Source: a virus. From it: 64,000 bases of DNA. Under the pieces are notes generated by a model. It was not told where the DNA came from. It was given only the letters and a program-made list of their open reading frames with translations, and made no database searches. The stretch spans positions 7,006 through 71,005 of IMG/VR virus record IMGVR_UViG_3300030450_002194. One strand, 5' to 3'. Shown here piece by piece: positions 26,852 to 28,912 of this stretch (position 1 is the first letter of the stretch; each line of letters opens with the position of its first letter). Position numbers and translations under genes: made by a program.

Positions 26852-27198
26852 TTGACGCTAACGCATGACCATATGGTAGTTAAAGTAGTTATAGGCGTTA
26901 CGAGAAACGAGAGCCGCTTACACTTAACTTGCCACATGAGGTACGTATCGCGGAAAACTATCCACTTTGTTCTTGACTTAATGTCAAGTTCCGTTTTCCA
27001 CTCACGACCATATGGGCAAGTAGAATGAGAATGGAGCGTTAAAGGTGCGAAATCTACAATACTGGCAAGTATTTTCTGATACAGGCATTAAGCCGGTGCT
27101 ATGCACTATCTTACCTACAATACTTGCCAGGGCAGGTAGATTTCTTCCTTTATGACCCTATGGGGGCTACACCCATATGGTAGGTTACTTTGTTAAAG

Positions 27199-27232
27199 AC
27201 TACCTTAAATAATCCATCAAATATAGAGATAC
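27199..27232 (+). promoter_or_regulatory. archaeal-type promoter, copy 1
   Basis: ACTACC-TTAAATA-ATCCATCAAATATAGAGATAC, nearly identical to 28913-28946. Confidence 0.7.
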
Positions 27233-27273
27233 GGTGGCGACCGAACCCACCTATACTCACAGGAGTGATAAAT

Positions 27274-27813
27274 ATGGTTGATTACAGCATGGAAGACAGC
27301 GTATGGAGCAACAAGAAAGAACACATTGCCGAGTGGTTTACTGCAAACCCAGAGCATGAAGGTAGGAGAGTCATTGTGGACGGATTGTTCGCAATAGGCG
27401 ATTCTCAGCCAGACCTCAGAAAGAGGCACTGGTCGAGCATTAGCGGAGTATTCGCAGATTTGGATAACTCCCCTATTGGCGGTGGAAGGAAGTCACTAAT
27501 GACAACCGCCGTTAAGTCCGACTTTGACAAGTACCTCGGTACATTCAGAGAGAACATGGCAACAGTCGTGTACCCACTGGTTTCCGGTACTGCAAAGACA
27601 CACGGAAAGTCCGGTGGCATCCTTTACGCCACTATGGAAGATGGGGCATCCGAGTACGCAGACGATATGACGAAGAAAGAGAGGCTATTCTTGAATGCCG
27701 CTTTCAACGCATACACCACGAACAACACCGAGAAGAGGTATTTCTGGGACGGTTCGTACAACGAGGATGGTTATCCAGTAATAACCGATAATGGGGGTCA
27801 AGAAGAGGAATAG
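27274..27813 (+). CDS. HGKS-family protein of unknown function (array cassette)
   Basis: GGAGTGA upstream of ATG 27274; W...GD...R...HGKSGG...YA pattern shared with 24926-25435. Confidence 0.8.
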   Translation: MVDYSMEDSVWSNKKEHIAEWFTANPEHEGRRVIVDGLFAIGDSQPDLRKRHWSSISGVFADLDNSPIGGGRKSLMTTAVKSDFDKYLGTFRENMATVVYPLVSGTAKTHGKSGGILYATMEDGASEYADDMTKKERLFLNAAFNAYTTNNTEKRYFWDGSYNEDGYPVITDNGGQEEE

Positions 27814-27890
27814 GGGTGTTTGGTCGCCACCCTCCCTTCGGGGACTTGTTTACAAAGTTATTGTCCATATGGTAATGGGCTTTGTAAACA

Positions 27891-27923
27891 TTACCTTAAA
27901 TAGTCCATATAATGTATAGAATC
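27891..27923 (+). promoter_or_regulatory. archaeal-type promoter, copy 2
   Basis: TTACC-TTAAATA-GTCCATATAATGTATAGA. Confidence 0.65.
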
Positions 27924-28029
27924 AGACGGGGCAACCAATACCCATTAACACAGTATATTGCCGCCGAGCATTCAATGCCTGTGAGGGGTCACTTGGTTTA
28001 ATGCCCCGTCTACCCAATGGGTGAATCTC

Positions 28030-28230
28030 ATGTCAGAAGATAAAACAATTATTCAACAGATTAACGAACCAAAGTATGTTATTGAATTAGCACACAAGAA
28101 ATCAGGGTCAGCCCTTGTGCTATCAATCAACAAATTGAGAGTATCGGGTGATAATCTGGAACAGGTCATGTCTGAGTTAAATTCAGCATTAAATGACTAT
28201 CTTGGCATAACTGGGGATGACACCAGTTAG
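28030..28230 (+). CDS. 66 aa protein, possible HicB-like fold (cassette)
   Basis: GGTGA upstream; VSGDNLEQVMSELNSALNDYL. Confidence 0.65.
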   Translation: MSEDKTIIQQINEPKYVIELAHKKSGSALVLSINKLRVSGDNLEQVMSELNSALNDYLGITGDDTS

Positions 28231-28435
28231 TCAGGTATTGATTACAAAGTTCAATACCATATGATAGTAACGTAGTGGTGTTTGTAAACTAAGTCGCGGT
28301 AACTTGTTAGCGTGGCTACTGTGAGTGACGCATTAAGCGTCAGTTAAACGTAGCGAGTATAGGGTAGTTTGTAAACAACTATCTGATTGCTCACGTATTC
28401 ACAATCATATGGTGGTAAAGATAGAAGAATCTATG

Positions 28436-28567
28436 TCAGTCGGTGAAACCGAGTGTCTTGCGCATATGGAGATACTGTTCTTCATCAGACAGTATCTCGT
28501 ACAAGATATTACTCAGTGTTTCAGCGCATTCAAATAGTTCTTCCTTGGTAACCTTATTTCCGGTCAC
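28436..28567 (-). CDS. 43 aa acidic peptide (cassette)
   Basis: GTG-ACC 17 nt after CCATATGG with the same TCATGCGTTAGC leader; MTGNKVTKEELFECAETLSNILYEILSDEEQYLHMRKTLGFTD. Confidence 0.45.
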   Translation of the reverse strand: MTGNKVTKEELFECAETLSNILYEILSDEEQYLHMRKTLGFTD

Positions 28568-28912
28568 TTATTGCTAACGCATGACCATATGGTGACGAGT
28601 GGGAAAACAGTAGTTACATTAAGTAAAAAGCATAGCGTCAGTTTTCGTGCGCTGTGACCTAATGAGGCAAGTTAAGCGAGCGGCTACATCACATGTACGC
28701 CTACGTACTTATACTACCATATGGTTATTAATCACGCTTGCGAGAATTGCAAACGTCAGGTGTTAATTTGCCAAGTATGCGCATTAAGCGCAGAACTAAG
28801 TGTCAGGTAAATTAACTTGCAATCCGAAGCAAGGGTTATAGTGTTTAGCGGTAATCACCTTAAGGTTCTTAACGCTTCGCTAAACCATATGGTAGTGAAA
28901 CTTTGTGTTAGC

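Follow-up and report, generated by a model that had tools for sequence, protein, structure and literature searches.

Units A and B, two short cassettes that lack an open reading frame (ORF), form a homologous, inverted pair inside an array of small units bounded by the palindrome CCATATGG, which is carried by an apparently magrovirus-like virus whose DNA occurs in marine metagenomes. The stretch of DNA analysed (the window, 64 kb) corresponds to bases 7006–71005 of a 71-kb IMG/VR virus record (IMGVR_UViG_3300030450_002194) with an estimated completeness of 74%; all positions are those of the window unless stated, and the features are collected in Table 1. We lean, with a confidence that lies just on the favourable side, towards the view that A and B are diverged copies of a folded non-coding cassette, shuffled by recombination between the repeated palindromes through general machinery.

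The two units are homologs in inverted orientation, each ending at palindromes. Self-BLAST of positions 24000–32000 returned as its best match 28582–28728 against 27018–26865, in inverted orientation (72.4% over 156 columns, E 4.7e-16), and A/B was the only pair that it recovered among the folded units (72%). With the palindromes removed, the reverse complement of 26877–27007 and the segment 28593–28716 are identical at 91 of 118 ungapped columns, which gives a local score of 44, compared to 9.9 ± 1.7 (maximum 17) for 1000 dinucleotide shuffles (z = 19.8), to 10 for the unflipped orientation and to at most 18 for the remaining 24 units of the array. The first-pass annotation of this DNA had proposed that one unit is present twice, in opposite orientation, with its ends at CCATATGG; the inverted best match and an interior score far above that of the shuffles bear this out. 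It had also named the observation that would speak for an ordinary inversion, namely inverted homology running well past the sites: the match stops 3–4 nt outside the CCATATGG octamers, i.e. at the extent of ACCATATGGT, the 10-bp extended core of the palindrome. Unit A contains a 51-codon frame that starts from an ATG within the palindrome, and the same frame stops at codon 4 in unit B. The two units were therefore taken as non-coding.

A and B had further been said to share their left neighbour. The likeness is real (26846–26877 against 28562–28593, in direct orientation, 87.5% over 32 nt), but it is that of a conserved leader belonging to another class of cassette and not a relic of the duplication: the leader has a third copy at 26441–26472, the motif recurs in distant relatives of the virus (L010, L012, L013 and L014), and the two left-neighbour cassettes are unrelated beyond these 32 nt. 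Since the shared leader is a motif of the mini-ORF class described below and the neighbours are otherwise unrelated, the context of the unit was not duplicated with it.

The pair belongs to an array of palindrome-bounded units. The window contains 23 exact copies of CCATATGG, all within the 6.5 kb of 24804–31284, where 0.98 ± 1.0 would be expected (at most 4 in 100 shuffles). Four further boundaries (28257, 28405, 30293 and 30403) carry one outer mismatch and keep CATATG: all 27 boundaries have this hexamer intact, and the adjoining bases vary. The array lies at a strand switch, with the replication block on the minus strand to one side of it and the structural block on the plus strand to the other, and its G+C content is 40–43% compared to about 35% elsewhere. 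Every unit is flanked by CATATG, the unit ends are complementary (inverted repeats) and both strands are occupied. The units comprise expression cassettes, minus-strand mini-ORF cassettes and ORF-less folded units. Expression cassettes (27173–27872, 27865–28264 and 28885–29333) have inverted hairpins with a CTTTG loop at their ends and a TATA-like box, TTAAATA(A), that sits 15 nt after the CTTTG loop and about 25 bp downstream of the palindrome; their promoters look archaeal. Mini-ORF cassettes share a fixed hairpin leader, GGTCAT-GCGTTAGC..-ATGACC. Two loop words are in excess in the array, CATTAAG (n = 11) and CTTAATG (n = 7), compared to 0.6 expected for each. Avoidance of a restriction site was rejected: outside the array CATATG occurs 18 times, for 19.5 expected.

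The array is a clade trait, as judged from its distribution. Among 14 viral loci retrieved with the protein that flanks the array (23648–24208), 12 bear 2–16 CCATATGG sites on the array side of the flanking gene, and the two most distant have 1 site. Five relatives were searched whole (7–23 sites): the sites that belong to a single cluster amount to 9/9, 13/14, 23/23, 16/17 and 7/7. A pattern of spaced 10-mer pairs occurs in 32 viral contigs, most of them with many sites, and the palindrome is kept in relatives whose backbone is only about 60% identical. In cultured-phage DNA the array found no match. A cellular origin was rejected, the 31 spaced-pair matches in 596 Gb of cellular genomes (most with only 2 sites) being close to chance by a rough estimate.

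Comparison of the arrays places the breakpoints at the palindromes. Across 18 arrays (203 high-scoring segment pairs), 296 of 750 homology end points lie at most 10 nt from a CATATG centre, versus 5.5% of random positions. In L005, whose backbone is 78–86% identical, orthologous cassettes align palindrome to palindrome with unrelated flanks; three expression cassettes are flipped and the order is changed. Such palindrome-to-palindrome alignments, in either orientation, are found in L005, L006 and L008. For instance, the 27173–27872 cassette is flipped in L005 and L006 and has the same orientation in L008 and L085, that at 27865–28264 is flipped in L005 and L085, and the ortholog of the 26632–26876 cassette is flipped in L085.

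The closest relative is L085, a metagenome locus with a backbone 82% identical beside the array and cassettes 66–95% identical. This locus is cut at one side and the first three units of the window were not judged; with 21 of its units fetched, partners were found for 20 of the 26 window units, 14 of them end to end. Ten partners have the same orientation and ten are flipped, and on inspection of the table none of the 18 testable adjacent pairs is kept. Unit A has a single ortholog in this locus (L085:8121–8268, M05): the two align end to end (1–147 of 147 against 148–1 of 148) with 80.7% identity, and M05, compared to the backbone, has the reverse orientation and sits between other neighbours. 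An end-to-end but flipped match of this kind means that unit A was inverted between two related viruses, with ends at the palindromes. Unit B matches M05 with 72.5% identity in the same orientation. L085 was the only related locus among the 6 matches of a metagenome scan with a 20-nt pattern common to A and B, and the 14 and 32 viral loci mentioned above contain no homolog of either unit at E ≤ 1e-4 or 1e-5. The sole match from an exact-pattern scan of viral contigs, L084, was set aside as chance: it has no palindromes and no homology.

The bases that depart from the perfect palindrome locate the exchange more finely. The folded cassette 28257–28412 has ends, CCATATGA...TCATATGG, that are identical in L005 despite different neighbours; the T that precedes CATATG at the right end of 30078–30300 is retained in L085, where the adjoining cassette is another one; and 30293–30410 retains the G of its right end in L085 though the unit is flipped. 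As the variant base travels with the cassette in all three informative cases, the joint lies within the CATATG hexamer. Together, these alignments show that palindrome-bounded units have been lost, gained, moved and flipped singly. The broadest proposal of the first-pass annotation, in which duplication and inversion act on the interval between palindromes as one unit, holds for A/B and for the array as a whole, as seen from the ends of A and B, the flip in L085, the homology end points and the contig joints that follow.

Population contigs from four sequencing runs were aligned at 90% likeness (assembled contigs only). A DNA contig from run X4 joins 28257 to 28406 and thereby skips exactly one cassette (28257–28412), with 6 ambiguous letters and a shorter side of 111 letters; the joint leaves a perfect ACCATATGGT. 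A DNA contig from run X2 joins 28583 to 28716 (10 ambiguous letters) and skips unit B, which is probably absent or replaced in that contig. Loose ends of X2 contigs at 28256, 28263, 28406 and 25537 reveal other neighbours at palindromes. The order found in the window is itself spanned by independent contigs: 26870–28263 and 28716–29638 (X2) and 28740–29368 (X4). Separately, an X2 joint from 30963 to 31094 skips 130 nt inside unit 30939–31284 and does not lie at a palindrome; this skip matches an inner inverted repeat (30968–30997 / 31057–31086), i.e. the loss of a hairpin.

RNA contigs from two studies cover 27235–27779, 27328–27801 and 25008–25475, within the cassettes of two related proteins with an HGKS motif (see below). 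One of them begins at 27235, right after adapter letters and about 27 nt downstream of the TATA-like TTAAATAA at 27205. This start fits the archaeal distance from TATA box to transcription start, bearing in mind that contigs cannot prove a start; together with the position of TTAAATAA, it would place the palindrome 27173–27180 upstream of the promoter. In the transcript of the 179-aa gene, the 5' leader (27234–27252) is complementary to the 3' trailer (27806–27830), as in a panhandle.

The ORF-less units fold into long hairpins, mostly with negative z-scores, and many are tipped by C-ATTAA-G. The consensus fold of the reverse complement of A with B contains a 5' hairpin domain of 27 pairs, of which 5 are compensatory and none is broken, versus 22 pairs and 3 compensatory ones on the opposite strand; the G-U pairs of the fold would turn into C-A if the other strand were read. 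When the L085 ortholog is included, the fold has 43 pairs, 10 of them double-changed yet kept and 12 with a broken or gapped member, and the 3' half is almost identical between unit A and this ortholog. The 5' halves of A and B would form a long hairpin tipped by C-AUUAA-G, and the 3' halves are conserved in sequence. For the folded-unit orthologs of the window and L005, covariation scored on single-sequence minimum free energy structures is mixed (e.g. 4 compensatory versus 11 broken pairs), and the run X2 variants show a few compensatory pairs, mainly, among the variants listed, in a manA-like RNA. From these models we infer that the folded units are RNAs, in which CCAUAUGG may be a candidate processing site.

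An Rfam search at E ≤ 1 over 22000–33000 returned only tRNA and a sub-threshold manA, with no match to the folded units. The manA RNA (RF01745) match is full-length (28947–29180, plus strand) and scores 41.9 bits compared to a gathering score of 55.2 (E 3.5e-8). This manA-like RNA, which shows at least 3 compensatory pairs among the X2 variants, lies in a promoter-bearing ORF-less cassette. As to words around the hairpins, an A-[AG]-C-x-A-A-G-like word (e.g. AACAAAG) is found 3' of many hairpins with the C-ATTAA-G tip (window 24000–32000, L005 and L049), and CTTTGTT, the reverse complement of AACAAAG, is the loop word of the promoter-side hairpins. L012 (1996–2284) and L013 (5886–6080) contain tandem palindrome-bounded units of about 90–105 nt, each made of a hairpin with GCAGGAGGG and ATGTTTGA-like letters after it; only a few of their codons are open, and the units may represent small RNAs or else leader peptides.

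The comparisons show that units are broken and rejoined inside the CATATG core, one at a time. In the reading that we favour, a unit would be looped out (or form a circle), or be copied, and would then be re-inserted at another palindrome, either way round. Because the core reads the same on both strands, the orientation of re-insertion would be free, and this would give rise to the A/B pair. Pairing of a unit's own ends would bring the flanking palindromes together, and recombination would occur between the boundary motifs, as proposed for the promoter-early stem-loop (PeSL) cassettes discussed below. The agent would be the general replication and recombination machinery of the virus or of its host, not a classical recombinase. 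The palindrome is probably also an element acting at the DNA level, e.g. a predicted site for a dimeric regulator about 25 bp upstream of the cassette TATA boxes; in such a role it would stay invariant.

Several observations weigh against this reading. No enzyme was identified. The 10 bp shared are very short for homologous recombination, yet units that are 80–95% identical are fully scrambled relative to L085: so short a shared sequence combined with so complete a scrambling points to an efficient, perhaps dedicated, process, and makes an enzyme a serious rival. A and B are only 72–77% alike, so that no recent event was caught, and unit B may have been acquired from another virus instead of being duplicated in place. 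The read evidence consists of assembled contigs only, among which no circle or other intermediate was seen, and the X2 joint at unit B has a shorter side of 30 letters at 90% likeness with the intervening letters recorded as not known, which calls for caution with such joints. As to the RNA nature of the folded units, the case is built on folding asymmetry and few sequences: just 11 of the 15 loop-bearing units fold better on the CATTAAG strand, the tip loop of the L085 ortholog is AUGAU and not AUUAA, and no RNA contig lies on A, B or the other folded units, small RNAs and contigs being so poorly suited to each other that this is not evidence of silence.

The foremost alternative, which we consider possible if on the doubtful side, is a dedicated site-specific system: a recombinase, transposase or nuclease–ligase pair of an unrecognised kind, encoded by the virus or its host, that cuts the CATATG core without regard to orientation. 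It would resemble an integron or a shufflon with a palindromic core, or a target-specific transposition that duplicates CATATG. Such a system would account for a hexamer that is invariant at all 27 boundaries while the adjoining bases vary and travel with the cassette, for the scrambling of 80–95% identical cassettes with 0/18 adjacencies kept, for an excision joint in X4 that leaves a perfect site and for unit ends that are inverted repeats. The sites themselves are less encouraging, with just 8–10 bp conserved and without the 11–13-bp arms of classical sites, and the units are nearly all unique, unlike a transposon family.

The search for an enzyme bears on the same alternative. Tyrosine recombinases (PF00589) gave 0 matches in six-frame searches of five genomes, this record and four relatives (G000, G001, G002, G004 and G005), and serine recombinases (PF00239) likewise 0/5; two of the five genomes are 100% complete, and the positive controls were recovered in 14/14 and 12/14 reference genomes. 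By Pfam, 72 ORFs of the record (74% complete) contain no integrase, resolvase or transposase. No classical recombinase therefore appears to be encoded. What Pfam does recognise among nucleases and ligases is an ERCC4+HhH2 protein, a PD-(D/E)XK protein and two ligase-domain proteins. In favour of a dedicated system, two conserved paralogous ORFans with an HGKS motif are always inside the array. These proteins, 179 and 169 aa long, are linked by hhalign (probability 98%, E 1.2e-13); both have the invariant HGKS and WDG motifs and an acidic C-terminal tail, and they are encoded in separate palindrome-bounded cassettes that lie on opposite strands. In the AlphaFold model (pLDDT 85.6) the HGKS protein folds into a bundle of helices plus a small hairpin, a fold that speaks against the proposal in that it has no informative match: Foldseek found nothing in the PDB at E ≤ 0.001, the best VIA-wide hit (Z 6.2) concerned helical fragments, and profile searches gave 0 matches in the PDB and 0 in NCBIfam. 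In its most specific form, which we advance tentatively and rate as rather unlikely, the proposal is that magroviruses carry an orientation-blind device acting on single cassettes, in which an enzyme outside the known recombinase families cuts and rejoins within CATATG; the candidates would be the HGKS proteins, or the viral ERCC4-type nuclease together with a viral ligase, acting on the hairpin–palindrome–hairpin junction.

We find it improbable that the palindrome is purely a regulatory or insulating site, which would mark the breakpoints without causing them while generic illegitimate recombination, followed by selection, keeps units whole. Its position about 25 bp upstream of the TATA-like boxes and its conservation where the backbone is only about 60% identical would suit such a role. 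So would the neighbouring 186-aa protein (23648–24208, minus strand), a candidate palindrome binder that is conserved beside the array in all relatives and has an N-terminus with a weak resemblance to an archaeal winged helix-turn-helix (GcrA, E 0.0018; Lrs14/Sta1, E 0.003; both far below the cut-offs); an Atlas look-alike with HTH+DUF1599 (score 0.85) is a lead only. However, every informative case has its breakpoint within a window of 6 bp, deletions take exactly one unit and one copy of the palindrome, many units have no promoter or ORF to regulate, and a regulator site would be expected to be more degenerate than 23 exact octamers.

Very little speaks for an ordinary inversion or duplication of a segment by way of longer inverted repeats, in which the palindromes would play no part: apart from the orientation of the two units nothing supports it, and homology ends 3–4 nt beyond the octamers on both sides, with flanks unrelated except for the 32-nt leader. 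Chance similarity or an assembly artefact is just as hard to credit, even for a window that is a metagenome assembly, given the z of 19.8 against shuffles, repeats of 8–10 bp that are shorter than assembly k-mers, contigs from independent runs (X2 and X4) that span several junctions in window order, and the unit A ortholog in L085. Also considered and set aside were replication-origin boxes, a bidirectional BRE-TATA element, BHB splicing sites, tRNA-like CCA ends and translation starting at the ATG of the palindrome.

The closest known analogue is the system of PeSL cassettes in T4-type phages, with which Comeau et al. (2014) are also said to have dealt. PeSLs have been described as regulatory cassettes in hyperplastic regions of these phages (Arbiol et al. 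2010, PMC2839356). The likeness is twofold: small accessory genes, mostly ORFans, are bounded by a short repeated motif within a single plastic region, and the breakpoints of insertions, deletions and replacements between relatives lie at the motif, recombination between copies of which was proposed as the cause. By contrast, the motif of the present array is an exact 10-bp palindrome, ACCATATGGT, often with a hairpin on each side, where the PeSL, as presented there, combines a sigma-70-like early promoter with a stem-loop terminator. Moreover, the host and promoters of the array are of archaeal type (the promoters by sequence only), its units are flipped as often as not (10/20 relative to L085), and many are predicted ORF-less folded RNAs.

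A haloarchaeal virus, HGTV-1, is reported to have a conserved motif, made of a TATA box and an inverted repeat, before most ORFs of one part of its genome (Sencilo et al. 2013, as presented in PMC3950731), and its authors, according to the same source, likened it to PeSLs and suggested that it is a shuffling device. The passage concerned (PMC3950731) does not mention cassette flipping. HGTV-1 too is a tailed virus of Archaea, with a terminase and a ligase that are distantly related, but shows no enrichment of CCATATGG (54 sites with at most 1 mismatch, versus 53 for a control pattern).

Other rearranging systems offer partial likenesses. Integrons, known also in Archaea, excise and re-insert mostly promoter-less cassettes at a short core beside an imperfect attC hairpin; the array likewise consists of single, mostly promoter-less cassettes with a short conserved core next to an imperfect hairpin, but it lacks IntI or any tyrosine recombinase, its core is the palindromic CATATG and not GTTRRRY, its cassettes occur in both orientations, some with their own promoter, and its carrier is a lytic-type virus. 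In the shufflon of plasmid R64, the Rci recombinase acts at sfx sites and segments invert singly or in groups. The array shares with it several short repeats in one locus and many arrangements; it differs in that no Rci-type recombinase was found, the sites are symmetric, units are also lost and gained, and no coding sequence is switched. Precise excision of Tn10 and Tn5 occurs by slippage between the short direct repeats that flank an element with inverted-repeat ends: here too a self-pairing unit between two short repeat copies is lost precisely with one copy, as in the X4 joint with its perfect palindrome, but slippage would explain loss only, not re-insertion or flipping. Finally, complementary ends and CATATG flanks recall transposons and MITEs, a picture that reciprocal exchange within the core would give as well; the many near-identical copies of such elements are lacking, as is any transposase family in the 72 ORFs scanned.

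A description of the array was not found in the literature searched, where the octamer returned cloning primers only, and in the main text of two magrovirus papers, whose supplements may hold more, word searches came upon neither palindromes nor hairpins nor intergenic repeats. Magroviruses count among the most abundant viruses that infect ocean archaea, and we know of no account of how their accessory genes come to vary. The array shows very fast shuffling of whole units, orientation included, at an invariant 6–10-bp palindrome, with no recombinase that can be recognised. An enzymatic process would amount to a novel form of site-specific DNA rearrangement that might serve as a tool; one based on short homology would extend the PeSL idea from T4-type phages to archaeal viruses and show how a palindromic joint frees the orientation of a cassette. 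Should a dedicated device exist, the array would be a library of small genes and folded RNAs under continuous reshuffling, and archaeal viruses would have their own counterpart of integrons and shufflons. With their conserved structure, the many folded units that lack an ORF point to viral small RNAs as a set still to be explored, and the A/B pair would be the clearest case within a single genome of a folded unit copied and flipped whole.

Table 1. Palindrome-bounded units of the array and selected genes of the virus
Feature	Position	Strand	Remarks
Whole array, 26 units	24804-31284	.	23 exact CCATATGG and 4 one-mismatch sites
Unit A, ORF-less folded cassette	26869-27015	- (functional orientation presumed from tip loop C-ATTAA-G on minus strand)	
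Bounding palindromes of unit A	26869-26876 (left), 27008-27015 (right)	.	
Unit B, paralog of unit A in opposite orientation	28585-28724	+	
Bounding palindromes of unit B	28585-28592 (left), 28717-28724 (right)	.	
Mini-ORF cassette	26632-26876	-	ORF 26663-26851, 62 aa; leader 26846-26868 = 'GCTAACGCATGA', left neighbour of unit A
Mini-ORF cassette	28405-28592	-	ORF 28436-28567, 43 aa, GTG start; leader 28562-28584, left neighbour of unit B
Folded cassette with its own variant ends	28257-28412	+	CCATATGA...TCATATGG; identical ends in L005
Expression cassette	27173-27872	+	TATA-like TTAAATAA at 27205; ORF 27274-27813, 179 aa, HGKS motif
Cassette of the 169-aa protein	24804-25532	-	ORF 24926-25435, paralog of the 179-aa protein
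Expression cassette	27865-28264	+	ORF 28021-28230, 69 aa
Expression cassette for an ORF-less structured RNA	28885-29333	+	sub-threshold manA match inside
Split family-B DNA polymerase (PolB)	window 163-1848 and L019 5781-6695	-	two ORFs about 470 nt apart
TFIIB zinc ribbon protein	window 13852-14784	-	
Second ligase-domain protein, 839 aa	window 59505-62024	+	ligase and RNA-ligase domains
ERCC4+HhH2 structure-specific nuclease	L019 2836-3522	-	

The genes around the array form two divergent blocks. Minus-strand genes occupy 1–24 kb of the window (the replication block) and, by Pfam, encode the N-terminal part of a family-B DNA polymerase, a three-domain ATP-dependent ligase, an RFC-like clamp loader, a ThiF/E1 protein, a TFIIB zinc ribbon protein and a ribonucleotide-reductase-like protein. 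The first 7 kb of the record encode the C-terminal part of the polymerase, the ERCC4+HhH2 and PD-(D/E)XK nucleases and an RNase-H-like exonuclease. The plus-strand genes of the structural block, from 31.6 kb onwards, include those for the terminase large subunit, portal and prohead protease. The site CCATGG is missing from the whole window (0 sites, versus 5.9 expected outside the array and 1.1 inside). Group B magroviruses have a split DNA polymerase and a two-block layout, according to Philosof et al. (PMC5434244). Its marine occurrence, divergent blocks, archaeal-type replication genes and split PolB suggest that the present virus is magrovirus-like (group B-like), an assignment made from gene content and layout.

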